Of a DNA stretch of 15,650 nucleotides, positions 1 to 15,650 are shown one piece after another. The notes beneath the pieces were generated by a model. It ran no database searches. It worked only from the letters and a program-made list of their open reading frames with translations, and had not been told where the DNA came from. The stretch's first letter is position 1. Each line of letters begins with the position of its first letter. The DNA is from a virus (Duplodnaviria > Heunggongvirae > Uroviricota > Caudoviricetes): IMG/VR virus record IMGVR_UViG_2703718817_000011. The stretch is one strand, 5' to 3'. Made by a program: the position numbers and the translations under genes.

Positions 1-165
1 ATGGCAAAGCCGATCATCACGCTCAATGGCCTAAAAATCGTCATTATGTTGGGAATGCTGGTCATTATTCTCTGCGGTATCCGTTTTGCCGCCGAGATCA
101 TCGTGCCGTTTATTCTCGCATTATTTATTGCTGTTATATATAACTTATCCCGCATAGTGCATTGA
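1..165 (+). pseudogene. tqsA: Truncated 5' fragment of AI-2 exporter gene tqsA (ydgG), interrupted by the inserted element
   Basis: ORF at nt 1 translates [46 protein letters not shown], which matches the TqsA N-terminus from memory; it then diverges (YNLSRIVH) and stops at 163-165 instead of continuing about 340 codons. Confidence 0.55.
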
Positions 166-1064: not shown

Positions 1065-2726
1065 TTACACCCCGCTAAATTCTTCCAGTTTCTGGCGGTG
1101 GCTGTCGCTTATATCAAAAGCAAAATCCTCATGCTCTGCCTGGAATGTACCAAACGCCATCAGCGCCGCTACGCTCGGGTCTATCTTGTTCGGTGATTTT
1201 TTCTTGTTCGGCTTGATATTGGCGTTCGCGTCACTCTGCATCACGACGTTACTCATCGACCAGGACAACACCGGATCGCCACGATGCACAATCACCCTGC
1301 GGTTAACAAAAACTTCGAACGATTTCGCCGCCGGACTGAATCTGAGGTAGGTTTGCGGGAACGGCTCCACCTCAAAACCAGCCCCCTGTAATTGCGTCCT
1401 GAGATGCGTGGCGTTCCACGTATCAAAGCCCACCAGCCTGATATTAAATTTCTCCGCATCCTGCATGATGTCATCTCTGATCCGGTCGTAATCAATGCAG
1501 TCACCTGGCGTTGTGCGTATCCAGCCCGCTTTAGCCCACTGGCGATAGACAGCGCGGTTTTTATTGGCGGGGTTCTGTAGCTGGAACTCCGGCAGATAAT
1601 GACGGGAAACCAGCATGATATTTTTACCGACCGGAAAGGCATAGCACACGCTGGAAATATCGCTGGTTGATGATAAGTCCAGCCCCGCGTAACACTCCTG
1701 CCCGTGTAAATCTTCCTCCGTGAACGTTCCGGCACACTCAGCCCATGCGCCGTTACCCATCCACGGGGTAGCCCCCTGGCACCAGATATTAAATCGCTTT
1801 GTCATCATCTCCACCCATTGCGACGGAATACCCCGCGCTTTCTGGATGGTTGAGGCCAGTTTTTCACGATCCACGGAAACATCGATGTTAGGGTTAGCCT
1901 TTATCCACATCGCCGGATCATCAACCTCGTTTTCGTCGTCCAGCTCGTAAATCAGCACAAAAATTGAATCGTTGACCTCTTCGCCGTCCAGGATCTGGCA
2001 GCAATAATCATAGTGCTGTTTACAGGTTGAAACGACGTTACTGCCCGATGTGGTAATGGCAAATAACAGCCCTTCGGGACGTGCGCCCATCCCCAGCTCA
2101 AGCGCGGAATAAACGCCGTTATCGGGGTGTAGGTGGTATTCGTCCACGATGGAAAGGCTGGGGTTTGTTCCCTCGATGGTTGCCGCTTTTGCTGCCAGCG
2201 GCTTTAACAGGCTGTTGCTTTTCGGGTGCATCACCTTGTGGGCCTGAATATTCACCCGCCTGCGTAACGGTCGGGATAAAAGGCACATCTGACGCGCATC
2301 ATCAAAAACGATCCGCGCCTGGTCACGGCTCACCGCTGCGGTGTAAATATCCTGCTGCCCGTTCTCCATAATCAGAAACCAGTTAGCCAGAATCGCGGCG
2401 GTCGTGGATTTCGCATTTTTGCGCGGCACTTCGATAAAGGCGCTCGTGTATTTGCGCCGTCCGGTGGCCTTAACCTTAAAGCCGAGGATGCACGCAAAGG
2501 CGAACTGCTGCCACGGCTCCAGCTCAATGGGTCTGCCACGCATCGGCCCTTTTACGTGCGGGCACACCCTGGAAAAGGCAATAAACCGCTCCACAACCTC
2601 ACGATCGAACGTGTAAAGGGGGCTTTCAAGGTCCGAAAAGTACCGTTTAACGGCCTGTTTCAGCCGTTTACAGGCCGGAATTTTGCCCGTTTTTACGTCT
2701 TCTGCGTACTTATTCCAGGCGGTCAA
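1065..2726 (-). CDS. terL: Terminase large subunit (HK97-type)
   Basis: 553-aa ORF with an N-terminal ATPase Walker A-like segment (VPRKNAKSTTAA) and a C-terminal nuclease-like region; apparent TTG start at 2726 with an AGAGGA SD, overlapping the terS 3' end. Confidence 0.88.
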   Translation of the reverse strand: MTAWNKYAEDVKTGKIPACKRLKQAVKRYFSDLESPLYTFDREVVERFIAFSRVCPHVKGPMRGRPIELEPWQQFAFACILGFKVKATGRRKYTSAFIEVPRKNAKSTTAAILANWFLIMENGQQDIYTAAVSRDQARIVFDDARQMCLLSRPLRRRVNIQAHKVMHPKSNSLLKPLAAKAATIEGTNPSLSIVDEYHLHPDNGVYSALELGMGARPEGLLFAITTSGSNVVSTCKQHYDYCCQILDGEEVNDSIFVLIYELDDENEVDDPAMWIKANPNIDVSVDREKLASTIQKARGIPSQWVEMMTKRFNIWCQGATPWMGNGAWAECAGTFTEEDLHGQECYAGLDLSSTSDISSVCYAFPVGKNIMLVSRHYLPEFQLQNPANKNRAVYRQWAKAGWIRTTPGDCIDYDRIRDDIMQDAEKFNIRLVGFDTWNATHLRTQLQGAGFEVEPFPQTYLRFSPAAKSFEVFVNRRVIVHRGDPVLSWSMSNVVMQSDANANIKPNKKKSPNKIDPSVAALMAFGTFQAEHEDFAFDISDSHRQKLEEFSGV

Positions 2727-3066
2727 GCTCGTCCTCTTCTTCTGTTTCCGGTGGATTTTTACGGCGGCTTATCGGGTCAAAACCGAGCAAAGAGGCCATT
2801 TTTATCATCACTCTTTCAGCGTCGGATTTTGCGCTTAATGCGGGGTTTCTGCTCTCGCCGCCCTGACTGTTAACAATGCTGAACCCGCGCGCCGCAAGGT
2901 CTGCAACGGCTTTCCGGTAAATGGAGTAGTTGACACAATACAGTTCCAGATTGCTCCAGTCGGCGGGGGTCAGGTCTCCCCGTTCCGCAAGCTGCCTAGA
3001 TTTTTCCCGCCACTGCTTCACGGCGATATCATCCAGGTAGGCGGGGGCTTTCGGTGGTCTTGCCAT
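2710..3066 (-). CDS. terS: Terminase small subunit (P27 family-like)
   Basis: 118-aa ORF directly upstream of and overlapping terL; sequence resembles P27-family small terminase subunits (recollection). Confidence 0.75.
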   Translation of the reverse strand: MARPPKAPAYLDDIAVKQWREKSRQLAERGDLTPADWSNLELYCVNYSIYRKAVADLAARGFSIVNSQGGESRNPALSAKSDAERVMIKMASLLGFDPISRRKNPPETEEEDELDRLE

Positions 3067-3188
3067 GCTTATTTTTCGCCAGATTATTTTTCAAAAAATT
3101 CCCGTGCATAAAAATTTGAGGAGGCGTTCGGTGCCCGGCGGGGTCGGGTTGGTCCTGAAAACGCCCCCCACCCCGTCATACAGCCTCA

Positions 3189-3371
3189 TCAGCGATTGCG
3201 GAAACATTCCATAACCTCGCGGTCACGGTCGGTTAATCGCTTCGCTGTGATGCGTTCTGCGCGTCCTGACGCTTTATCTTTATGCCCTGTTTCCTGTGTC
3301 TTCCATGCGTCACGCTGCCTTATAAGTCCACGGATAAGGCGGTTTTGCTCCCGCTCATTCATCAGCGTCAT
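3189..3371 (-). CDS. Hypothetical small basic protein (about 60 aa) between HNH and terS
   Basis: Internal ATG at 3371 (or 3362) of track ORF 3189..3593, overlapping the HNH stop; highly charged sequence; weak SD. Confidence 0.3.
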   Translation of the reverse strand: MTLMNEREQNRLIRGLIRQRDAWKTQETGHKDKASGRAERITAKRLTDRDREVMECFRNR

Positions 3372-3795
3372 ACATCCAGTTATTGCGGTTAGCGGCCCGT
3401 TCTTCCTCTTCACGAAATCCACCTGCGGCACGCTTGCTTTTTGTTGCCGGATCAAGCCATTTCGTTTTCTGGTTATGACACGCCTGGCACAATGGTTGAT
3501 GGTTCCATTCGGGCCAGAAGAGAACATCATCACCGCCATTAATCGGGATAATGTGATCCACCACCACGGCGGGCGTATATATCCCCTTCTCAAGGCATCG
3601 CACGCATAACGGGTTTTTACTCAGATACATGGCGCGGTATTTGTCCCACTGTCTGGAATATCCACGCGCGCGGCGGTGTCCTCGTCTGGCATCCTCTGCA
3701 CGCCATGCCGCCCGCCTGTGCTCCTCACACTTGCCGGATTTAACGCGCCTGTTACAGCCTGGTTCTGTGCATCGTCTTAATGGTTGCCACGGCAT
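3355..3795 (-). CDS. HNH endonuclease (packaging-associated)
   Basis: 146 aa with paired Cys motifs and an HNH core (CxxC ... DHIIP ... N ... H ... CxxCH); located next to terS as in HK97-like cos phages; start overlaps the upstream stop. Confidence 0.85.
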   Translation of the reverse strand: MPWQPLRRCTEPGCNRRVKSGKCEEHRRAAWRAEDARRGHRRARGYSRQWDKYRAMYLSKNPLCVRCLEKGIYTPAVVVDHIIPINGGDDVLFWPEWNHQPLCQACHNQKTKWLDPATKSKRAAGGFREEEERAANRNNWMYDADE

Positions 3796-4091
3796 CAGTA
3801 CACCCCCACATCACGGTAAGCCGTCCAGAGTGCGCCTATCGTCATGGGTACGCGTGTTTTTGCGTTATCCGCGACAATCTGGCGATTTTCATACAGGTGA
3901 GCGATAAACATCATGCAGCCAATCTTTATGGCTGGCGTGAACTCCAGCCCGTCATCAAAGCGCCTGCCTATGTGTATCTGGCACGCCTCAAGCGATGCGG
4001 CAATGTATCCGCTGATTAACTGGTCTTCATCGTCGCCATCGATGCGGCAATGGAGTTTCACTTCTTCCAGGGTGATAAGTTCTTCTGTCAT
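3795..4091 (-). CDS. Head-tail connector protein (gp6-like DNA packaging protein)
   Basis: 98-aa ORF; N-terminal ITLEEVKLHCRIDGDDEDQLI pattern typical of gp6-like connectors (recollection); ATGA overlap with the upstream gene. Confidence 0.65.
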   Translation of the reverse strand: MTEELITLEEVKLHCRIDGDDEDQLISGYIAASLEACQIHIGRRFDDGLEFTPAIKIGCMMFIAHLYENRQIVADNAKTRVPMTIGALWTAYRDVGVY

Positions 4092-4426
4092 TTTTCCGCG
4101 CCCTCACGACAAAGAATTTCAAGGCGTGTCCTGGCGGCATCCGGCAGCGGCTGCCCGATGATATTCAGTACACGCCCCGCCAGCGGCCCCGTACTGACCT
4201 TTATCCGACTGGTGGCGTTGATGTCCTTCCGGTACCGTATCCAGATCCTTACGGTACCAATCGCCAGCTCTGCGCCCGATGAAATGGCCTCCTTGCTGCT
4301 GATCATGTTCACGCTTGCCCAGAGTGTGTGACCGTCCTCCCACGTTTCGAGTATTTCGCCCGTCATGGCTCTGGTCTGTTTCAGGGTCTGAATCGTTATC
4401 CTGTCACGCAGTCGCCCTATGTTCAT
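4088..4426 (-). CDS. Head closure / head-tail joining protein
   Basis: Start taken at the internal ATG 4426, which forms an ATGA overlap with the portal stop; begins MNIGRLRDRITIQ, a hallmark of the phage head-tail joining family. Confidence 0.65.
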   Translation of the reverse strand: MNIGRLRDRITIQTLKQTRAMTGEILETWEDGHTLWASVNMISSKEAISSGAELAIGTVRIWIRYRKDINATSRIKVSTGPLAGRVLNIIGQPLPDAARTRLEILCREGAEK

Positions 4427-5634
4427 TCCGGTTTTTCTCCCTCGCTGATTTTTACTTCCTGTTTCCATGCCTGGCTGAACTCATCACCACCATCACGCGG
4501 TGACAGTCCTTCACGTTCGCGGGCTTCGTTCGGACACATAACGCCGGATTTGATGCCGCGCTCATAGGTGGCAAAGCGTTCGCCAGGTGTGGCCCGTAAC
4601 AGGTCCGCGCTGTCAAACTCCACCTGATACCGGATACCAGGTACAGGCGAGGCCACCAGCAGGGCGTTTTTTATCTGCTGCTCAAAGTTCGCCAGCCACG
4701 GGCGCATCGTCATGGTGAGAAATGCGCGGCTTGCCTCGCTGAAATTGCTGTAGGTGCTGTTGCTGTATTCCTGCAAAAAAATCGGCGAGACGTTGAACAT
4801 TCGGGCGATGTCTTCAATGGTGAAGCGACGGGAGGCCAGCCATTCAGCATCCTGATTACTCATGCCCAGCTGCTGATAGCTCATACCCCCTTCAAGGATG
4901 GGCGTTTTTCCGGCGTTTCTGGCCCCTTTGTAGCGTTCCAGTGCGGCTAATGCCTGTTTGCCCTTCACGCCGTCCAGCCATTCGCCTGACGTGATAACCC
5001 CTGCCGCCATCATGCCATCACGCATCACGCTCGCGCCGTGGCGTTGTTGGGCCAGCCCAAGCCCCAGCGATTCGCGGCAGATGGTTACAGGTGAGCGCCC
5101 CATAAAGCCGTCATCCGTGGAGTAACGAAGGTGAAGTACTTCCCACGGTAAATAGTTGCGGGTGTTTCCGGTGTAGGCGTCAGTGATGCAGTAGCGCCAG
5201 TTGTGTTCGCCTGTCTGCTCCACGTTCACCGACTGCGGCGGGTAAGGATGTAAAGCCGCCGGAAAACCATCACGCCCCCACTGAATCACCGCATAAGCAT
5301 TACCGTTTAACAGGCAGTGGCGGATCATCATTCGCTTAAACTGGTAGGGGGTTTGCCATGCGTTCGGGCGCTCGTTGAGGATGTGATCGACCGGATGAGA
5401 ATCAAGCCACTCGCGGGCCTCCTTCCCCTTCTCATTGCGTACCAGGTACAGGTAACACGGCATGGTAGCCACCGCCTCAGAGATGACCGTGACGGCGTTC
5501 ATGACGGCGGGCAGTGATTCCGCTGTCCCCGATGATACGTACTCACCCGCCCCCGTGTTCGATGTGCCAGCCAGCGCCATAAATTCATCAAGCGTCATGC
5601 TGCGCTGCTCTTTTTTTCTTCTGAAAGGCCACAT
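4423..5634 (-). CDS. Portal protein (HK97 family)
   Basis: 403-aa ORF with portal-family features; GGGGGTG SD upstream of ATG 5634; starts immediately after the protease stop. Confidence 0.88.
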   Translation of the reverse strand: MWPFRRKKEQRSMTLDEFMALAGTSNTGAGEYVSSGTAESLPAVMNAVTVISEAVATMPCYLYLVRNEKGKEAREWLDSHPVDHILNERPNAWQTPYQFKRMMIRHCLLNGNAYAVIQWGRDGFPAALHPYPPQSVNVEQTGEHNWRYCITDAYTGNTRNYLPWEVLHLRYSTDDGFMGRSPVTICRESLGLGLAQQRHGASVMRDGMMAAGVITSGEWLDGVKGKQALAALERYKGARNAGKTPILEGGMSYQQLGMSNQDAEWLASRRFTIEDIARMFNVSPIFLQEYSNSTYSNFSEASRAFLTMTMRPWLANFEQQIKNALLVASPVPGIRYQVEFDSADLLRATPGERFATYERGIKSGVMCPNEAREREGLSPRDGGDEFSQAWKQEVKISEGEKPE

Positions 5635-5635
5635 A

Positions 5636-6208
5636 TCACACCCCCGCTAAATCCACCCACCAGCGGCGATTATCCGCACGCGGCATTTTTTCGGGGTGCT
5701 GCTCATACAGGGAACGGCGGGCCAGCTCCACGCCGGAATCAGGGTAAGCCGGAACGGATGTAACGGTAATTTCGTACAGTTCCGCCACCAGCACGGTGCG
5801 CACGCATGGATCTGTTGTGGTATCCCATACATCCTTACGGGAACGAAAGCCAAAGCTCATGCCGGATATATCACCACGTTTAACCAGTTCGATAACGTCG
5901 CGCCCTGTGCTGGTATCCGGTGGGGTCAGTTCAAAGCGTAACCCTGTTTCGTCCTCTTCCAGTTTCAGCGTGCCGGAACGGGTACGCCCCAGTAACATGC
6001 TGTGGTCATGCTCATACAGGCCGCGAACGTCATTACCCGCTGCAAGCCATTCAGTAAACGCTCCCCGCTGGAATTTTTCGTAAAACTCACCCCATAACAG
6101 TTCTGAAAGCTTATCCCAGCGAACAACGTAGCCCGTCAGCGTACCGGCTCCGCTGGTGGTGATTTCCGATGACCGGATTTCCATACTCTTCATAATTTTT
6201 TCACCCAT
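5636..6208 (-). CDS. Prohead maturation protease (HK97 family, S78)
   Basis: 190 aa with YEHDHSMLLGRT and ISGMSFGF motifs typical of HK97 prohead proteases; alternative starts at 6193 or 6184. Confidence 0.82.
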   Translation of the reverse strand: MGEKIMKSMEIRSSEITTSGAGTLTGYVVRWDKLSELLWGEFYEKFQRGAFTEWLAAGNDVRGLYEHDHSMLLGRTRSGTLKLEEDETGLRFELTPPDTSTGRDVIELVKRGDISGMSFGFRSRKDVWDTTTDPCVRTVLVAELYEITVTSVPAYPDSGVELARRSLYEQHPEKMPRADNRRWWVDLAGV

Positions 6209-6247: not shown

Positions 6248-7405
6248 TTAATCGTCGTCCTGTGGCAGTTCCAGAATCTTGATCGCGTTCGAATCCACCA
6301 CGCCACCGCCTAAATATTTCTGCGTGAAAATTTTGATGAAGCCCGGCTCTGTGAGGTTGTCCGGTCTGGTGCGAACACCTGTTTCGTGATCAACAATGTA
6401 GTAACCGCGTTTGAAGTCACCCAGGGCAATAACGTTATCAGGCATAAACTCCAGATATTCGACCGGAAGGCCCAGCAACGTATCAGGATCACCCGCCTGT
6501 AAACGGTCGCGCCAGATGTAATCACCGTTCGCGTTCTTCACCTTCTGAAGTTTTGCCGCCGTCGTGGAGTTAACCACCCAGACCGCGTTTTTGCGGTATT
6601 TTTTACGTAATGCAAATTTCAGGTCGATCAACGGGTCCGCAGATGTCCACGCCAGAGATTCGGAAGGTTTAATTACCTGCAACGTACCAAAATCACGCTC
6701 TTTGTCGTTCTTCTCTGCACGGGGTACGGATAAAAAACCTTTTGCTTTTTTGTCACCGTCGCCCACAACCAGATCGCTTTCTTCGGTTTCCGTGAAGGTG
6801 TCGCCAATCTCACCCGTCAGCCATGAAAGGATGTCCACATCGGAAAAATCCACGATTTCCTGTGTGGTGCGCGGGTACGCATAGACCGGATACAGCTTAA
6901 TGCTCACCTCGTTAATCTGCGGGGTGCTGGTCTGTTCGCGTGTCTTACCCTCTTCACCGTGGTTAACGGTCGCACCGCCAGCGGAAACAAGCTGCTTAAA
7001 CTCGTTGCTGCTGATTTTCTTCACGGTACAGATGCGGCGCATGGTGGACTCATCCGCCAGCATTCGCATGATTTCGGTGTTCAGCTCGGGGATAACGGTA
7101 TAACCACCATCAGCGGGAACGCCTGTACTTAATGCGCGGGTTTCACCCGTCAGAATGTAGTTTCGTAGTTCTGCGGGGTCAGTGGTCTGACTGCTTTTAC
7201 CTGGCTTGCTGCGCTCTTCGTCTGCAATGGCTTCAAGGCGGGAAATGTCTTTATCGAGGGATTCAGCTTTAGCGCGTAATTCGTCAAATTTTGCGCCCTC
7301 AGCATCGTTAAGACTGCGGTTTTCTTTTTCCGCGTTCTCCAGCATGTCACGCATCTGATTTTTAATGGCGGTTTTCTGCTGGCGTAATTCGATTATTCTC
7401 TGCAT
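6248..7405 (-). CDS. Major capsid protein (HK97 fold) with N-terminal coiled-coil delta/scaffold domain
   Basis: ATG at 7405 (the track ORF extends to a TTG at 7450); N-terminal coiled coil about 70 aa long followed by a capsid-family body (GGYTVIPELNTEI...). Confidence 0.88.
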   Translation of the reverse strand: MQRIIELRQQKTAIKNQMRDMLENAEKENRSLNDAEGAKFDELRAKAESLDKDISRLEAIADEERSKPGKSSQTTDPAELRNYILTGETRALSTGVPADGGYTVIPELNTEIMRMLADESTMRRICTVKKISSNEFKQLVSAGGATVNHGEEGKTREQTSTPQINEVSIKLYPVYAYPRTTQEIVDFSDVDILSWLTGEIGDTFTETEESDLVVGDGDKKAKGFLSVPRAEKNDKERDFGTLQVIKPSESLAWTSADPLIDLKFALRKKYRKNAVWVVNSTTAAKLQKVKNANGDYIWRDRLQAGDPDTLLGLPVEYLEFMPDNVIALGDFKRGYYIVDHETGVRTRPDNLTEPGFIKIFTQKYLGGGVVDSNAIKILELPQDDD

Positions 7406-7443
7406 AAAAAAAAGTCCTGGGGTTAAGTAAGGAACTCCAGGAC
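7406..7443 (-). promoter_or_regulatory. Leader hairpin plus U8 tract abutting the capsid start codon (attenuator or SD-sequestering structure)
   Basis: Minus strand reads GUCCUGGAG-loop-CCCCAGGAC then UUUUUUUU then AUG; the only SD-like AGGA lies inside the 3' arm of the stem. Confidence 0.45.
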
Positions 7444-7620
7444 GCGGCAAACACTCAACCGTTTTTCATAAGGAAATCAGCAATCGCACCGATCGTTTTC
7501 CCGCCTGGTAATGAATATTGGCGGGCACATTAACAGGCGGGAAAGTGGCCCCAGCGTCCTGGCACCACGGGCGAGAATAATCATGATTCAGTTCGGGTAA
7601 AATATGCCGATCCGCTCAGT

Positions 7621-7650
7621 GAACAACGTGGAACAACCACGAACAAATAA
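7621..7650 (-). repeat. Three helically phased TTGTTC repeats upstream of the packaging operon
   Basis: Plus strand gaacaacgtg gaacaaccac gaacaaataa; minus strand reads TTGTTC at a 10-bp period; related to the repeats at 251-270 and 14341-14390. Confidence 0.5.
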
Positions 7651-7653
7651 TTT

Positions 7654-7686
7654 ACAAAAAATAACAAAAAGCCGGATTGCTCCGGC
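7654..7686 (-). terminator. Intrinsic terminator after the perC-like gene
   Basis: GCCGGA-ttgc-TCCGGC stem at 7671-7686 followed on the minus strand by UUUUUGUUAUUUUUUG. Confidence 0.55.
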
Positions 7687-7692
7687 TGTTGA

Positions 7693-7965
7693 TTAGCTGT
7701 CTGTGTAATTACGCCATATTTCATCGCTTACACCATCCATACCCATTTCAGCATAAGTGCGATCGACTGCCTTTCTCAGGTCTCCGAAGTTATCCGGCGG
7801 CTCCGGTGGCCTCTGTGCCTTCCTGGAACATTCCAGCCGTCGCATCGTAACCTGATGCCGTTCCTTGTCTGTCTCCACCAGTTGCATGACTTCACCCCAT
7901 CGCGCCGCCGCCCTCCGGTAAAAGCCTTTTGCCTCGAGTTCCTCCGCTATGCGGTCATGTGCCAT
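7693..7965 (-). CDS. PerC-family transcriptional regulator homologue
   Basis: Start at ATG 7965 with a GAGGGGG SD; contains the YRRAAARW motif characteristic of PerC/Pch proteins (recollection). Confidence 0.65.
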   Translation of the reverse strand: MAHDRIAEELEAKGFYRRAAARWGEVMQLVETDKERHQVTMRRLECSRKAQRPPEPPDNFGDLRKAVDRTYAEMGMDGVSDEIWRNYTDS

Positions 7966-7975
7966 CGTCACCCCC

Positions 7976-8386
7976 TCAGAACGGAATATCATCACCGTAA
8001 GGGTCATCGCCTCCCGCTGGTGGCTGATTACCCTGTGTGCCTGTGGCTTTGCGTCTGTTCCCGCCAGGACGTGCCGCGCGGGCACTGATTACGCTGTCCG
8101 CAATAACCTGATACCCCTGCCGTGTTTCCCCGTTCTGTCCGGTCCACTGGCTTACCTGCATCGTGCCGGATACGCTGGCAACATCGCCTTTTTGATGTTT
8201 AGCCAGGAAATCGGCCTGTTTGCCAAATGCGATAACCGATAACCATAACGTCGCCTGTCCGTCATGTGCCTGGCTGCATGGCAACGATACCGCCATACGC
8301 GCCAGAGTCATCGGTGTGCCCTTGCTGCTCTGTTTTACCAGCGGGTCGTCCACCAGCCGCCCGTAAGCTGCAATTTGTGCTGTCAT
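7976..8386 (-). CDS. ssb: Single-stranded DNA-binding protein
   Basis: 136 aa with an OB-fold-like N-terminal region, a Gly/Pro-rich linker and the C-terminal acidic tail DDIPF; GAGGTGG SD. Confidence 0.85.
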   Translation of the reverse strand: MTAQIAAYGRLVDDPLVKQSSKGTPMTLARMAVSLPCSQAHDGQATLWLSVIAFGKQADFLAKHQKGDVASVSGTMQVSQWTGQNGETRQGYQVIADSVISARAARPGGNRRKATGTQGNQPPAGGDDPYGDDIPF

Positions 8387-8395
8387 ATTGCCACC

Positions 8396-8701
8396 TCAGT
8401 GAAGCGATCCGGCGTTGTTCTTTTTCATCTCTTCCATCATTTTTTCAGTGAGCATTACGCACTGAAAACCCATGCTTTTGATGTCTACGGGTTTCATGCC
8501 TTTGTCTGTGGATATCACAGGCAGAATATCCTGATACACATCGCGGTCAGGGTAACTAAGCACACAAAGCGCCCATGATGCCACGGGTGAGGATCCTTCG
8601 TCTGTTTCAACCCACCAGCCTGGTGTAGCTGCGCTTATTTGCAGAATCGTGATCCGTCCGTTGTGCTTGTAAAATTTTTCACCAAATTTTGGTTCGCTCA
8701 T
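8396..8701 (-). CDS. Hypothetical protein (101 aa)
   Basis: ORF with an ATGA overlap to the upstream gene; 10-nt gap to ssb; no recognisable family. Confidence 0.5.
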   Translation of the reverse strand: MSEPKFGEKFYKHNGRITILQISAATPGWWVETDEGSSPVASWALCVLSYPDRDVYQDILPVISTDKGMKPVDIKSMGFQCVMLTEKMMEEMKKNNAGSLH

Positions 8702-8949
8702 GATTCCACCTCTCCGGTTTTAACGTTGATTGTTGTTACCTGTTCCGCTTCGGCAATCTCCCGTTCTGTCAGCGTGGCAAAGTTTGCCGCCGCTGTGGTC
8801 ATGAATGCGCTTATCAGTTCGGGATGCTCCTTCGCGTATCCTTCCCCCGCGTGGCGGTCTATCGTTCTGATTGCCACCTTTAAAGCGTGCTCTGTCATGT
8901 CTAACGCTTTATATTTTGGCTGTGTTCTGTCTCTGCGTTTTTGTGTCAT
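8698..8949 (-). CDS. Hypothetical protein (83 aa)
   Basis: Start taken at the internal ATG 8949 (GGTGGGGAG SD); the upstream part of track ORF 8698..9144 overlaps the iteron region and is probably non-coding. Confidence 0.4.
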   Translation of the reverse strand: MTQKRRDRTQPKYKALDMTEHALKVAIRTIDRHAGEGYAKEHPELISAFMTTAAANFATLTEREIAEAEQVTTINVKTGEVES

Positions 8950-8950
8950 C

Positions 8951-9155
8951 TCCCCACCTATACCCACTTTTACTCCCCACTTTTCACAATTCCCCATCTC
9001 GTTAAAGGCGTGGGATTTGTAATTTTTATCATGCTGTTTCATAAGGATTTTTTTGCTCCCCACTTTTTGGGATGTATACAGGTCAAAAAGTGGGGGATTG
9101 TGTTTAAATTTTGTTAAATTCCCCATACCCACCACTTTTGCCACCCACTTTTTAC
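8951..9155. repeat. Putative replication origin: CCCCACTTTT-type iterons flanking an AT-rich segment
   Basis: At least six copies of CCACTTTT in both orientations (about 8965, 8977, 9060, 9084 inverted, 9133, 9146) around an AT-rich stretch at 9011-9056, immediately 3' of the replication gene. Confidence 0.5.
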
Positions 9156-10561
9156 AGTGGCCCTACATCATCGCCGTCAACATAGATAACGCCGTCTTTT
9201 TCCAGCTTGCCCAGCCAGCGCCGGAAGTGCTTTATTTCGTACCCCAGTTTTTTCATGTCATCACGTAACAGCGGGATCGTGCACTTGTCGCCGTTCTGTG
9301 TGCGTGAACGGATACACCCCCATAGCGCGGTATGGTTTTCCGTCTTGTTGCCTGCCTCTTCGATGCGCTCCAGTTCAACGGGAGGGCGCGGCTTATCCAC
9401 CACCACCAGCGACGTGATTAACTCCCCGTCAGCGTCGGTAAAAAGCTCCACCACCCGCAAATCATAGGCAGCCTCTTTGAGTTCCTCCGCGTCCTTCATT
9501 TTGGTGCATGAGATAACCAGCGCTTCGCTTCCTGCGTCCTCCCTGCGTATCCGGTATTCAGCATCCAGTGATGCACGAAATGCACTGGAACCGCGCGCGC
9601 CTTTCGTCTCATCCTTGCCGGAATGGTGAACCACCAGCACCGTGGCCCCTGTGCGTCGTTTCAGTTCGTCACACCCACGGATAAACGCCCCCATGTCGCG
9701 GGAGTCATTTTCATCATTGCCGCCAAAGCAGCGCGCCAGCGTGTCCAGAATAATCATGCGAACAGGTTTACCCGTTTCCCTCTCCACCTGACTGGCAGCA
9801 ATAACCAGTTCATCAACATCAAGCGGGACAGCCGGAAAGATGGGACGGTTTACCAGATACAGATTTTTCACCTGCTCACCGTGCACAACCTCCCAGGCTT
9901 TTACACGACGCGGAACGCCGATACCGCCTTCACCAACCACATAGAGAACAGCGCCATGCGCCACCCTGCGGCCTCCCCACTGGCGGCCCGTGGAAACGTG
10001 ACACGCCCACGATCCGGCAAGGAATGATTTATAGGAACCGCTCGCCCCGTATATGCTGCAAAGCGACGATGCCGGAATAATCCCCTTTACCACGTAATCA
10101 AGTTGTGTGTCGTATCCGGTAGATCCAACGCTCATCGGTAGCGTGGTTTTTCGCTGGGGGATTTTTTTCATGACCAGGCTTTCCCCGCGTTCCCATGCCT
10201 CCCTAAGCCGTGGAAGCTGGTCGCTCCATTCCTCCAGCAATTCGAAATTTTCAGAAAGTAGCCGCGCCTCCTGGACTCCGGCGATCGCCAGTTTCGTGGC
10301 GATGGTTAACAGCTGCGGCTCTTCAATATTTCCGGCGCGTATCACCGTCGCCCTGTATCGCCCATCATCAACAATCTGGAGGTTATCCAGTTCGCTTAAC
10401 TGATAACGCCCCAGATAAACGGGAGGGACTGGATCGCCTGCTTTTTTGGCCTGTGCAATGATGTAATGCTCTGCGAATGAGTGAGCATCAATACCCGCAA
10501 AAATAATCGCATCGGTGTATTTGTCTTTCGGTAATAGTTTTACGTTCGGTGCCAGTTTCAT
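9152..10561 (-). CDS. Replication initiator/helicase-type ATPase (AAA_25/RepA-like), candidate PICI Pri-Rep
   Basis: 469 aa with Walker A GASGSYKS, Walker B-like MIILDTL and an HHSGK motif typical of AAA_25 RecA-like replication proteins; N-terminal domain about 150 aa of unknown type. Confidence 0.7.
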   Translation of the reverse strand: MKLAPNVKLLPKDKYTDAIIFAGIDAHSFAEHYIIAQAKKAGDPVPPVYLGRYQLSELDNLQIVDDGRYRATVIRAGNIEEPQLLTIATKLAIAGVQEARLLSENFELLEEWSDQLPRLREAWERGESLVMKKIPQRKTTLPMSVGSTGYDTQLDYVVKGIIPASSLCSIYGASGSYKSFLAGSWACHVSTGRQWGGRRVAHGAVLYVVGEGGIGVPRRVKAWEVVHGEQVKNLYLVNRPIFPAVPLDVDELVIAASQVERETGKPVRMIILDTLARCFGGNDENDSRDMGAFIRGCDELKRRTGATVLVVHHSGKDETKGARGSSAFRASLDAEYRIRREDAGSEALVISCTKMKDAEELKEAAYDLRVVELFTDADGELITSLVVVDKPRPPVELERIEEAGNKTENHTALWGCIRSRTQNGDKCTIPLLRDDMKKLGYEIKHFRRWLGKLEKDGVIYVDGDDVGPL

Positions 10562-10857
10562 TTTTTACCCCTGAATCCGTTAATCATGGTTTTCAGCTTC
10601 TGGATGTTTGCCCGTGCCCTGACGTTGCTGGTGGGCACGTTATGCGGCGCGGTCTGTACCAGAGAAAAATCACGCCGGAACTGATAAACAGGCATCACGC
10701 AATCATATTCGTAACCTTCACGGCGGTAAGTTACGCACCGTCCCGCCACGCCCTTAATCATTACCGTGCCGCCGTACTGGTCGCGGTAAATATCACCGCG
10801 CGTAAATTTAGGGTGAGTGTTGCCACTGGCAGTTAAGCCAGAATATTTAAGTTTCAT
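10558..10857 (-). CDS. Hypothetical protein (99 aa)
   Basis: ATG 10857 with a GGAGAA SD; ATGA overlap with the rep start. Confidence 0.5.
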   Translation of the reverse strand: MKLKYSGLTASGNTHPKFTRGDIYRDQYGGTVMIKGVAGRCVTYRREGYEYDCVMPVYQFRRDFSLVQTAPHNVPTSNVRARANIQKLKTMINGFRGKK

Positions 10858-11555: not shown

Positions 11556-11757
11556 AAAGCATCCCCTGAATATTCGTGTTAATCATTCCGGCACGTTTTG
11601 TGATTTCCTGTAATGATTCCCTTGTGGCGACAATTGCTTCATCTGGTAAGTGGTAATTACACACCACGCGACCTTTATCCACATTGACCAGTAGCTGCCC
11701 TGTGAATTTCTCACGAAACTGAATGCGGTTAAGGTCAGTAAGTGACAGATTAATCAT
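11545..11757 (-). CDS. Hypothetical protein (70 aa)
   Basis: ATG 11757 preceded by a strong AGGAGGTG SD and overlapping the upstream stop. Confidence 0.5.
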   Translation of the reverse strand: MINLSLTDLNRIQFREKFTGQLLVNVDKGRVVCNYHLPDEAIVATRESLQEITKRAGMINTNIQGMLYAQ

Positions 11758-12307
11758 GGCGCACCTCCTGACGAATACGGGCGGCAAATACAGCAACACA
11801 ACCGGACGGGCAACGGTTACGCGCTTCGCGTTCCGTCCAGGCGGTTACGTGGATGATTTGATGGTCTGACGCGCCAAAGGCAATAAAGCGCCAGATAAAG
11901 GCTGTTTGAGAATGTACGAGGGCAGGGGTAGTAGCCATGTTGGCAGCCTCCTCAGTGTGGTTAAGATAACCGCCACGCAAAAGGCTAATTTCGCTGGTGG
12001 CGGACTGTACAGGGTTAGCCTTACCGGACACTGAAGAAACCGGCGCGGATTGCTCCGCCCCCGTACAGCCCACCATTGATAAGGTGTGACTATGCGGCAC
12101 AAAAAAACACGCGGGACGCGTGCTGTGCGCTTCAGTTGTTTTCAGGAGGCTAATCCCGACACCCGTTTTATGAGGTGCGCGGGAATCATAGCTATTTTCG
12201 ACACTGGCGATCAACTGGTTTTTTTCTCCGATATTCAGGGCCAGAAAACGCCACACAAAGGCAGTTTGTGTGTGTACAAGGTGTGGTATATGATTTACAG
12301 CAACCAT
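11750..12307 (-). CDS. Icd-like (P4 host cell division inhibitor-like) protein with tandem duplicated domain and internal start
   Basis: ATG 12307 with an AGGAG SD; two copies of an LVH(T/S)QTAF(V/I)WRF segment; second in-frame ATG at 11938 has its own GAGGAGG SD; Icd-like call from recollection of P4-like island proteins. Confidence 0.5.
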   Translation of the reverse strand: MVAVNHIPHLVHTQTAFVWRFLALNIGEKNQLIASVENSYDSRAPHKTGVGISLLKTTEAHSTRPACFFVPHSHTLSMVGCTGAEQSAPVSSVSGKANPVQSATSEISLLRGGYLNHTEEAANMATTPALVHSQTAFIWRFIAFGASDHQIIHVTAWTEREARNRCPSGCVAVFAARIRQEVRHD

Positions 12308-12398
12308 AACGGCTCCTAGTTTACGTTGTTGGTTAGAAGCCCTGCGAGTGGTAACGACACTTGCGGGGCTTTGTCTTTTCATCGATTACCTTGATAAA

Positions 12399-12487
12399 GG
12401 TGTCAGCCACTATATTAGTAACGGGTGTCAGCCACGTCAATAGTGTTTTTCCGTTTTCTTGTGTGTATACTGTCAGCCACCTAATAA
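12399..12487. promoter_or_regulatory. Divergent promoter/operator region with three direct repeats of GGTGTCAGCCAC
   Basis: Repeats at 12399-12410, 12424-12435 and 12470-12480; minus-strand TTGACG-17nt-TAATAT (12435-12440 and 12412-12417) with a repeat in the spacer; plus-strand TATACT (12466-12471) or TTGTGT-17nt-TAATAA. Confidence 0.45.
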
Positions 12488-12501
12488 CGAGGAAATCAGA
12501 T

Positions 12502-12681
12502 ATGGCAACAAAAGCAGTTAATGCAAAATCCAAAAAGCTTGAGGCTCGAGTACCACACGCAATAGCTGATGCTGTAGAAAATTTAAAGGAAGATGGCGAA
12601 AGTACAGGGCAATTTATCGTTTCGGCACTTGAAGGCGAGATCAAACGCCGCCAGCGCCGCAAGGCCAAAGAATCAGAATAA
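12502..12681 (+). CDS. Ribbon-helix-helix (CopG/Arc-like) DNA-binding protein, 59 aa
   Basis: ATG 12502 with a GGAA SD; predicted beta-strand/helix/helix layout (KLEARVPHAIADAVENLKEDGESTGQFIVSALEGEIKRR); divergent from the replication operon. Confidence 0.55.
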   Translation: MATKAVNAKSKKLEARVPHAIADAVENLKEDGESTGQFIVSALEGEIKRRQRRKAKESE

Positions 12682-12738
12682 TCACTATCAGCGCCGTGGT
12701 GTGAGGTACTACGGCGCATTGCTTTACAGGGCAGTATC

Positions 12739-12966
12739 ATGACCAACAACACACTATCACCAATACAAGACACGCAAACGCAAGATGATGAATTCATCCG
12801 GCAAAGGCAGTCAGAAGCCTGCGCCAGACTTGAGGAAGAACTAACCAGAACAAAAATACCACCACCAGCGCCGCGCTTAGTGCCACCAGAAAAATTTGCC
12901 CTTGAAGATTTTGTCGATAAATACCCACGGCGGCTTAAATCCGGCAAAAACCGACCGCCAGGATGA
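12739..12966 (+). CDS. Small protein of unknown function (75 aa), partner of the upstream RHH gene
   Basis: ATG 12739 follows the conserved 44-nt hairpin element; paralogous to 13423..13626. Confidence 0.45.
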   Translation: MTNNTLSPIQDTQTQDDEFIRQRQSEACARLEEELTRTKIPPPAPRLVPPEKFALEDFVDKYPRRLKSGKNRPPG

Positions 12967-13084
12967 GTGCACAAAACCGAACTATGAAACGGATTATTCC
13001 GTTTCCGGGGCGTTTGTGTGTGTATAAAGAGTAAGCTATGCTCTTTTATAGCCATAATCGTTCCTCAATTAATGGTTTGGTTAG

Positions 13085-13128
13085 ACGCCCCGTATGTGTT
13101 CCCATCACTGCGGGGCGTTGTTTTTTGT
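13085..13128 (+). terminator. Intrinsic terminator after the first RHH module
   Basis: 8-bp GC-rich stem ACGCCCCG / CGGGGCGT followed by TGTTTTTTG. Confidence 0.5.
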
Positions 13129-13185
13129 GCTAGTTGTGTGTAATGTGTATATACACATAAACACATTATATGGGGTGTAATTGAC

Positions 13186-13365
13186 GTGTCAACACACAAA
13201 AATGAAAGGCGTGGTAATCCTCCTTTCCAGTTCCGTTTAGATCCTGACTTACGGGAAAAGATGGAAAAAGCACAACAACAAGACGGTGATGACTCTTTAG
13301 CTGCTTGGATAAAACGAATAATCCGAAAAGAATTACAGCAACGCGGTATTGAACCCAAAGAATAA
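13186..13365 (+). CDS. Arc-like ribbon-helix-helix protein, about 59 aa (start uncertain, GTG proposed)
   Basis: Not in the ORF track (below 60 aa with a non-ATG start); hand translation gives VSTHKNERRGNPPFQFRLDPDLREKMEKAQQQDGDDSLAAWIKRIIRKELQQRGIEPKE, resembling P22 Arc; GGGGTG SD-like 8 nt upstream. Confidence 0.5.
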   Translation: MSTHKNERRGNPPFQFRLDPDLREKMEKAQQQDGDDSLAAWIKRIIRKELQQRGIEPKE

Positions 13366-13422
13366 AAAACATCAGCGCCGTGGCGTGAGGAACTCCGGCG
13401 CATTGCTTTACAGGTACACACA

Positions 13423-13626
13423 ATGACCAATAAAGAATCAACCAATACACCATCGCAAAAAACGAACAGAGAGCACGAAAATATGGCGCTCGAGCATGAA
13501 TCAGAAAGATTCGCTCCATGCGCTTTTGTCCTTGATGAGTTTCTAAAAAAATATTCACGTTCTGAACGGATGAAAATGGCAGCACAATACGGCCCCAACA
13601 AGCAAGGTAATTGCCCACCAGCCTGA
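13423..13626 (+). CDS. Small protein of unknown function (67 aa), paralogue of 12739..12966
   Basis: ATG 13423 follows the second copy of the 44-nt element; both proteins start MTN and share a C-terminal F(A/V)L(E/D)(D/E)F..KY.R motif. Confidence 0.45.
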   Translation: MTNKESTNTPSQKTNREHENMALEHESERFAPCAFVLDEFLKKYSRSERMKMAAQYGPNKQGNCPPA

Positions 13627-13699
13627 TAGCGGCTATCATTCCCGTGCTTATGTTTGGGATCACATACACATAAGGCGCAGCAGGTTAATTGTTCAGAAA

Positions 13700-13728
13700 G
13701 GCGGCTCCATATCGGGGCCGCTTTTTTT
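13700..13728 (+). terminator. Intrinsic terminator after the second RHH module
   Basis: GCGGC / GCCGC stem followed by seven T. Confidence 0.5.
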
Positions 13729-13869
13729 ATGCCTGAAAAACCCCAATTTTGTTGTTTTTCAGTTTCACCAGGGCGAACGAATCCCCGCCCACGTTCGGGC
13801 GCATATTCAATCTTCATAGTTATATCTCTGTATTAGTGGATGTGTGGCGACTGTGTGCCGCCAGTCTTT

Positions 13870-14058
13870 TTAGTGAACTGCCTTGCAGCTATCCTTCCAG
13901 GCCAAAACCTCAGATAAAGACCAGCCAACAGAACGCCCACCAAGTTTACGACGTGATGGGAATTGTCCGGCCTTTTCCAGGCGGTAGCGGCATGAGCGGC
14001 TAAGGCCTGTTAGCTTTTCGCATTCTTTTTCACGTATAAACCGATCAGTGCTTAACAC
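13870..14058 (-). CDS. alpA: AlpA-family phage regulatory protein (excisionase/transcriptional regulator-like)
   Basis: 62 aa, apparent GTG start with an AAGGGGG SD; winged-helix excisionase-like sequence (LTGLSRSCRYRLEKAGQFP ... GWSLSEVLAW); downstream of and co-directional with int. Confidence 0.78.
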   Translation of the reverse strand: MLSTDRFIREKECEKLTGLSRSCRYRLEKAGQFPSRRKLGGRSVGWSLSEVLAWKDSCKAVH

Positions 14059-14432: not shown

Positions 14433-15650
14433 TTATTTTATTCTGGTTACTGGTAGCGTGGTTACGTTTTCATGTGTTCCCGCCAGTATCTCCAACCGCT
14501 CCACCCACATATCAAGCGCATTGCGTTTCGCATCAATATAGCGGGAATGGTTGTACACGCGTTGCATTCCTGGCATCTGGTGGCCTGTAAGCTGCTCCAC
14601 GACGTGAGGATCAACGCCTAAATCGTTCAGCATGGTTGTAAAGGTGCGCCGGATGTCATGCAATGACCATTGAGGGTGTTTTAGCCTCCTGTGCGCTAAT
14701 CTGCCGTACTGCGATACGCTAGCCTCCTGTTTCACTTCCCCCAGTAATAAGCCCGTGTGCCTGTTCTGGTCCACCAGCCGCGTGACGAACGGCAGGATCG
14801 CTTCCGGTATGGGCCGGAATATTGCAACCTTCGTTTTGCTGTGCTCCTTCGGAACGGTCCATAGCATTTCGGTAAAATCCCACTCGCTGATCTCCGATAA
14901 CCTCAGTTCTACCGTCCTGGCTCCGAAGACAATCAGGAGGCGGATTAACGCGACGTAGTAAGGAGAAAATATTTTTTTATCCAGCGCCTGCAATAACTCG
15001 CCCAGTTCTTTGGTGCTTAAGACACGTTCGCTTATATCCGGTTTTTTCCCAACGTCCGCCACGTTCAGATCATCGAGAACGTTGCTGATTGCAAAGCGCC
15101 GCCTCCGGCAGAACTTAAGCGCCTGCTTGCATGTCTGTAGCACGAATCCGGCAGTAACAGGTGTTCGCTTTGCCACCTGGTCAAAACAGGCCAGCCAGTG
15201 CCGTAGCTCGCATTTATCCAGCGGCATAGCGCCAATGTACTGTATTACGTGATTATTAAGTCGCCTTTTCAGGGCGATATAATCCACGCGGTTTTCCTTT
15301 ACGTACGACTCAAGCCAGTAGGTGAGCGCATCGCCAACCGTTACCGGCTTTAACGCTTCCTGTACGGCGTAATTCATCTCATGGCGTGGATTTTTCCCCT
15401 CCGCCAGCCATGCGCGACACTGGGCGGCTTTTTCCCTGGCTGCTTTCAGGCTCAGATCAGGATAATTTCCCAGCTTAATACGTTCCGGTCGTGTCTCTCT
15501 TCCCGTTCCTGCCCTGTAAGTGAAATACCAGGTTAATTTCCCTGATGTTAAATATTTCACGCTCAGATTTCCGCCATCGCTATAAAACGTGTTTTTCTCC
15601 GCTGGCTTACCATGAAGTTTCCTTAGCAAGGTATCGCTCAGTTTGTTCAT
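14433..15650 (-). CDS. int: Tyrosine-type site-specific integrase (phage/P4-like family)
   Basis: 405-aa ORF whose start codon is the last three bases of the window; C-terminal catalytic signature HDIRRT ... H ... Y and an N-terminal arm-binding-like domain. Confidence 0.9.
   Translation of the reverse strand: MNKLSDTLLRKLHGKPAEKNTFYSDGGNLSVKYLTSGKLTWYFTYRAGTGRETRPERIKLGNYPDLSLKAAREKAAQCRAWLAEGKNPRHEMNYAVQEALKPVTVGDALTYWLESYVKENRVDYIALKRRLNNHVIQYIGAMPLDKCELRHWLACFDQVAKRTPVTAGFVLQTCKQALKFCRRRRFAISNVLDDLNVADVGKKPDISERVLSTKELGELLQALDKKIFSPYYVALIRLLIVFGARTVELRLSEISEWDFTEMLWTVPKEHSKTKVAIFRPIPEAILPFVTRLVDQNRHTGLLLGEVKQEASVSQYGRLAHRRLKHPQWSLHDIRRTFTTMLNDLGVDPHVVEQLTGHQMPGMQRVYNHSRYIDAKRNALDMWVERLEILAGTHENVTTLPVTRIK

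Follow-up and report, generated by a model that had tools for sequence, protein, structure and literature searches.

A pchE allele on a capsid-forming phage satellite of Escherichia coli

The IMG/VR record IMGVR_UViG_2703718817_000011 carries a short gene that an initial annotation described as a PerC-like regulator carried on a satellite. This raises the question of which PerC-family gene it is, and whether its product serves a virulence regulon, other host functions or the satellite itself. We addressed it in the whole 15,650-nucleotide stretch (hereafter the window), in related islands of complete E. coli genomes and in the published work on relatives of the gene.

The gene (7693..7965, minus strand) is an intact ORF running from an ATG at 7965-7963 to a TAA at 7695-7693 and encodes 90 aa. 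In the mechanical ORF list, the same frame reaches upstream to a GTG at 8085 and gives 130 aa. This extension runs into ssb, and the Pfam match begins exactly at residue 41, which is the ATG at 7965. In the 10-nt spacer between ssb and the gene (7966..7975, minus strand) we read a Shine-Dalgarno-like GAGGGGG 5-9 nt upstream of the ATG, with the ssb stop 10 nt upstream. The presence of this motif favours translation from the ATG at 7965.

The initial annotation would have been withdrawn if profile searches had returned no PerC-family hit. They did return one: PF06069 matches the 90-aa product end to end (profile positions 1-90 of 90, E 2.3e-44), with 150 bits against a gathering cut-off of 22.6 bits, so the family call is borne out. 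The product is also matched by phrog_994 (E 1.3e-45). EPEC PerC (pMAR2, WP_000405638.1) has the same length and is 41% identical along the whole protein (36/87, E 3e-25). Unlike the island-borne window gene, EPEC PerC is plasmid-borne in the perABC operon; the PchA/B/C genes are located on lambdoid prophages. An alignment of 49 family members showed that LE..G.YRRAA.RW, C46, RPP and MG are kept as a core, that this core is conserved among relatives at 33-87% identity, and that the window protein has all of it. A full-length profile match, homology to EPEC PerC and the core residues in a protein of about 90 aa were thus all found, and the product is a member of the PerC family. When EPEC PerC was used as the query of a protein search, there were 3 close matches. 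In the phage collection, the sole match was a truncated 1.5-kb fragment.

Within this family, the window protein is identical at 85 of 90 positions (94%; five residues differ) to PchE of E. coli O157:H7 Sakai (ECs_1588), which likewise has 90 aa. The Sakai gene lies on Sp7, that is EcCIEDL933 or OI-51/CP-933C, and PchE was noted on OI-51 in 2011 (PMC3378721). We found both near-identity to PchE and the position after ssb and before the morphogenesis genes of an OI-51-type island. Judged by this identity and by its place between ssb and the capsid gene, the window gene is an allele of pchE, a "group 3" PerC homologue in the grouping of PMC6265319. With 8 substitutions in all, dN/dS for the window and Sp7 carries little weight. 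As a pchE allele on an E. coli phage satellite of an already described type, the gene is ordinary and already known. Standard annotation already names it correctly, the identical 273-nt CDS of E. coli O43 RM10042 being labelled "PerC family transcriptional regulator" in RefSeq (WP_000929753.1), and the pchE orthologue has been studied since 2004. Since PerC homologues on E. coli PICIs were reported in 2018 (PMC6092414), the idea of such a gene on a satellite is not new.

The satellite context held up as well. The window has the gene set of an EcCIEDL933-like capsid-forming PICI (cf-PICI), for which EcCIEDL933 is the prototype architecture (bioRxiv 10.1101/2022.09.08.507074). We found an integrase, alpA, a replication gene next to a putative origin with iterons and a capsid-to-TerL set of its own within the 10-16 kb range, and no tail or lysis genes in the window. 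As judged from gene content and junctions, the element is an EcCIEDL933-like cf-PICI integrated in tqsA. In E. coli O43 RM10042 the island measures about 15.5 kb and lies between the two tqsA halves, and a window-like island, covering at least 80% of the window length, is present in 61 complete E. coli genomes. The tqsA gene is split after codon ~46, between FIAVI and LNPLV, and the core shared by the two junctions is short (GCTGTTAT). These junctions lie at 4100-4200 and 19600-19700 of the RM10042 locus (L001), and the start of the window (1-165) falls in the 5' part of tqsA. A need of helper phage and alpA for induction and transfer has been shown for EcCIEDL933 only (bioRxiv 10.1101/2022.09.08.507074).

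All the core genes of the island are on the minus strand. The tyrosine integrase (14433-15650; PF00589, PF13356) is at the right end of the island and is followed by alpA (13870-14058; PF05930). Replication genes comprise a RepA-family helicase (9152-10561; PF13481) and, downstream of it, an iteron-rich putative replication origin (8950..9151, minus strand), where we counted about six iterons of the AAAAGTGGG type, including an inverted one. This region is probably the satellite origin. The capsid/packaging module opens with an HK97-type major capsid gene (6248..7405; TIGR01554, E 1.1e-87) and continues with the protease, portal, head closure, connector, HNH, TerS and TerL genes (1065..6208).

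Comparison with Sp7 shows which parts are shared. Both islands have the order orf83, ssb, pchE, terminator, leader and HK97 capsid module, and the packaging proteins of the window are 97-100% identical to those of the Sp7 module. The integrases are 90% identical, but the window island is in tqsA whereas Sp7 lies between roxA and phoQ. Replication differs too: the window has a RepA-family helicase with AAAAGTGGG iterons, and Sp7 a primase with TAACCCGCA iterons. Since the Sp7 iterons are unrelated, the replication module has been swapped between otherwise near-identical islands. Finally, orf101 is present in the window and absent from Sp7, and Sp7 has an ECs_1589 cassette after pchE that the window lacks. 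In Sp7 (locus L002, 8546-8950; compare window 7669-7692), this cassette of about 400 bp with the 74-aa ECs_1589 comes right after pchE, and the terminator hairpin of pchE (ACAGCCGGAG.AATCCGGCTTTTT) is present on either side of it. Its position between duplicated terminators marks the pchE terminator as a hotspot of insertion and recombination.

The pchE allele of the window is the last gene of a minus-strand string that stands at the joint of the replication and capsid/packaging modules. This string comprises orf83 (8698..8949; phrog_1231), an ECs1586 homologue 92% identical to that of Sp7, orf101 (8396..8701; phrog_27268), and ssb (7976..8386; PF00436 SSB, E 6.6e-16; phrog_44), the latter immediately upstream of pchE. 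An intrinsic terminator (7670..7687, minus strand), with a 7-bp stem including 5 GC pairs, a 4-nt loop and a T-run, is directly after pchE. In the ssb-pchE blocks of other E. coli islands, similarity ends at this terminator. In Sakai, 5' RACE identified a single ECs1586-ECs1587(ssb)-pchE polycistronic mRNA with ECs1586 as first gene (PMC7369912), and ssb and pchE of the window are likely co-transcribed. The operon promoter should be located in 8950..9151. However, the two islands have different replication modules and iterons, so the window does not share the sequence in which the transcription start of Sakai was mapped, and a search for the sigma-70 consensus in 8950-9151 found none. Steady expression from the resident island is thus not assured.

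The pchE terminator and the start of the capsid gene are separated by a 264-nt structured leader (7406..7669, minus strand), with a minimum free energy of -104.6 kcal/mol and a z-score of -4.6. It contains three TTGTTC units with an exact 10-nt spacing (7621-7646) and a terminator-like hairpin (7414-7443) followed by T8 (7406-7413), which together extend over the ribosome-binding site of the capsid gene up to its ATG at 7405. Such an arrangement suggests control by attenuation or antitermination. All E. coli copies of the leader are more than 95% identical. We considered whether pchE is tied to this leader and rejected it, as in O157:H7 SS17 another leader, with a capsid module of lambda type, comes after ssb-pchE; the leader moves with the capsid module and not with pchE. 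H-NS counter-silencing of the capsid module was likewise unsupported: the packaging module has 49-58% GC, and base composition limits the AT-rich stretch to the alpA-int intergenic region.

What does the gene do? That it could alter host gene expression had been proposed in the initial annotation, and published work on the 94%-identical orthologue agrees (PMC6265319, PMC7369912). When over-expressed, PchE acts as a repressor of csgD/curli, eae and lpfA1, while flhDC/fliC expression rises, the csgD/curli repression and the flagellar rise having been shown for PchE of O157:H7 PA20 only (PMC6265319, PMC7369912). Over-expressed pchE also increases motility, lowers stpA and raises ler more than 2-fold (about 2-fold), and pchE lowers eae expression and HEp-2 adhesion (PMC7369912). 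Most PchE phenotypes derive from plasmid over-expression; the pchE deletion has a small phenotype, with slightly raised Congo-red binding (PMC6265319).

We consider it probable, by analogy with this orthologue, that the window gene is a functional pchE allele which acts in trans on host regulators in the manner published for PchE and does not activate the LEE. As published for the orthologue, transcription of pchE from the resident island would be low and steady, on a polycistronic mRNA with ssb, and the protein would act in trans on host master regulators. The expected outcome would be lower csgD/curli, eae, lpfA1 and stpA, higher flhDC, fliC and motility, and a modest increase of ler. What our own analysis shows is that the protein belongs to the PerC family and is orthologous to PchE, that the genes lie in the order described, that a terminator closes the string and that the element is a satellite.

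A different function was implied by the initial annotation, which stated that PerC/Pch-family proteins activate virulence regulons in pathogenic E. coli. The statement stands for PerC and for group 1 PchA/B/C, which activate LEE1/ler, but not for group 3 PchE. It is very unlikely that the window gene is a LEE or virulence activator like EPEC PerC or PchA/B/C, even though it shares the Pfam family and 41% full-length identity with PerC, ler rises upon pchE over-expression (PMC7369912), and EHEC strains such as O145:H28 are among the hosts of the island. According to PMC6265319, Iyoda and Watanabe (2004) found group 3 pch dispensable for ler/espA expression and for adherence. As quoted in PMC11773190, Porter (2005) observed no effect of the PerC-like genes of EcCIEDL933 and EcCICFT073 on LEE1-lacZ fusions. 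The lowered eae expression and HEp-2 adhesion cited above also argue against activation. Moreover, EcCIMP1_025, which also belongs to the PerC family and whose E. coli PICI has int, alpA and primase genes, represses LEE1-lux in Citrobacter rodentium; it is about 40% identical to the EcCIEDL933 homologue and lies on a classical PICI without capsid module (PMC11773190). Finally, a similar gene is carried by 936 of 5,426 complete E. coli genomes, ExPEC and commensal strains among them. The name PerC should not imply a LEE activator in the group 3 subgroup.

We find it scarcely credible that the gene is a decaying passenger without current function. Short truncated or partial copies do occur in databases. 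However, the ORF of the window is intact and has both a good ribosome-binding site and a terminator, the core motif is conserved among relatives as divergent as 33-87% identity, the gene is retained in hundreds of E. coli genomes, and its orthologue has measurable phenotypes (PMC6265319, PMC7369912).

We then asked how a PchE-type protein might act. An AlphaFold2 model built with the 49 family members (mean pLDDT 84) has five helices, and no helix-turn-helix or other DNA-binding fold is evident in it. Fold searches of the PDB and BFVD gave no significant match (best E 0.13), and a profile search of PDB sequences gave no homologue. The ANR profile NF033650 aligns residues 6-52 of the window protein with profile positions 8-54 at 18 bits (E 0.0019), below the NCBI curated cut-off of 32 bits, so the protein is not an ANR member by that profile. 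Nevertheless, 36 of the 49 PerC-family members match NF033650 at E <= 0.01 (best 5e-07), which suggests that PerC-family proteins are probably distant ANR relatives with an added C-terminal half. ANR proteins such as Aar and the PerC family are alike small helical proteins, and a phage ANR model could be laid over about 44 residues of the N-terminal part, although not significantly. Unlike ANR, the PerC family has an extra conserved C-terminal half with the RPP ... MG motif and two more helices.

ANR proteins bind other regulators and H-NS, according to literature cited in PMC11773190, and an ANR-like nature was suggested for the EcCIMP1 PerC-like protein by its authors (PMC11773190). The all-helical model, in which no DNA-binding fold is recognisable, and the ANR-related N-terminal ~50 residues make it most likely that the window protein would act by binding another regulator or nucleoid protein, in an ANR-like manner, and not as a classical DNA-binding activator.

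Another explanation is that the primary job of the protein lies within the satellite life cycle and that the host effects are side-effects of over-expression. It could, for example, set the expression of capsid and packaging genes, or modulate a helper phage or the maintenance of the island. We regard this explanation as unlikely, though clearly more plausible than a LEE activator. We scanned one genome per species with a 13-sequence alignment as query. The scan gave 28 loci, six of which look like chance matches and were left out (L022, L025, L027-L030). The 22 convincing loci are from Escherichia albertii, E. ruysiae, Atlantibacter, Enterobacter, Kluyvera, Shimwellia, Pantoea and Lonsdalea, as well as Chimaeribacter, Erwinia, Trabulsiella, Raoultella, Citrobacter, Lelliottia and Scandinavium. 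The perC-like gene nearly always has the integrase and alpA 6-9 kb upstream and follows a P4-alpha-type primase-helicase or a DUF927 helicase, and ssb is its immediate neighbour in about 12 of about 20 genuine loci. Variable accessory genes lie downstream.

Satellites of the type int-alpA-(RgdR)-primase-ssb-perC in at least 12 Enterobacterales genera, with the perC-like gene in a conserved place beside ssb, speak for a role intrinsic to the satellite. The genera concerned include Pantoea, Erwinia, Lonsdalea, Kluyvera and Shimwellia, which are not known to carry the LEE. In E. coli, the gene is always at the replication/packaging boundary, and ssb-pchE lies directly upstream of this capsid module in 352 of the 358 complete genomes that carry the module. 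SS17 has the same ssb-pchE block before a lambda-type capsid E/decoration/Nu1 module. One pchE-ssb block is common to satellites that differ in integration site, replication module and packaging module. It would also fit such a role that, in front of the capsid operon, there are a terminator and a structured leader but no consensus promoter.

Several observations argue against it. The leader moves with the capsid module, the joint is exactly at the pchE terminator, and pchE recombines independently. In other genera it is variable accessory genes, and not a packaging module, that follow perC. In Enterobacter cloacae, PerC is listed for one PICI but not for cf-PICIs (PMC13612085). Under SOS-inducing conditions pchE mRNA decreases more than 6-fold, the opposite of what a late activator would show (PMC6265319), and mutation of alpA alone abolishes induction and transfer of EcCIEDL933 (bioRxiv 10.1101/2022.09.08.507074). 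We therefore retain the action in trans on host regulators as the preferred reading.

A broader version of the satellite role would make ssb-perC a backbone module of enterobacterial PICIs, with PchE-type proteins as ANR-like modulators that serve the satellite first; we give this version a low probability. If true, PchE-type proteins might tune host nucleoid proteins or regulators and so keep the resident island poised, a host shifted to motility and away from biofilm would favour encounters with helpers and the spread of the satellite, and the effects on LEE, curli and flagella in E. coli would be consequences of this role.

Further observations concern the layout of related islands. In O157:H7 SS17 (L032, 9001-13615), the island is at the same roxA-phoQ site as Sp7, and its repA is frameshifted. 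Islands of this type, found in some O157:H7 strains, have the same left half int-alpA-RgdR-RepA-ssb-pchE and a right half with lambda-type capsid E, head decoration and Nu1-type TerS, which replaces the HK97 module. At some scan loci a ProQ/FinO-like gene adjoins the perC-like gene. A ProQ/FinO-family gene directly precedes the perC-like gene in satellites of E. albertii and E. ruysiae (L003, 9462-9998; L004, 9462-10004): in L003 it lies between ssb and perC (PF04352, E 1e-24) and in L004 it takes the place of ssb.

Besides pchE, the window carries an RgdR-like DUF4222 gene (10558-10857, minus strand; PF13973; 99 aa), which forms the replication module (9152..10857) together with the RepA-family helicase gene. 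Its product has an RGD motif (FTRGDIY) and is 78% identical to ECs1581, which is RgdR, a regulator of OI-51 reported to activate type III secretion and affect motility (PMC3378721). By this resemblance, the island carries two published host regulators, RgdR and PchE. Upstream, several small ORFs come between the DUF4222 gene and an Icd-like ORF (~11750-11947, minus strand), which is directly downstream of two minus-strand RNA genes, a C4 antisense RNA (11993-12080; Rfam, 75 bits) and an isrK RNA (12102-12178; Rfam, 62 bits). C4/isrK and an Icd-like gene in a satellite early region resemble the immI (c4-icd) layout of phage P1. Between these RNA genes and alpA are two tandem cassettes on the plus strand (12361-12966 and 13186-13626), for whose ORFs no Pfam match was found. 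Long minus-strand ORFs listed over them (12333-13055 and 13065-13817) look spurious, and each cassette has two small ORFs, of which the first is YlcI/YnfO-like.
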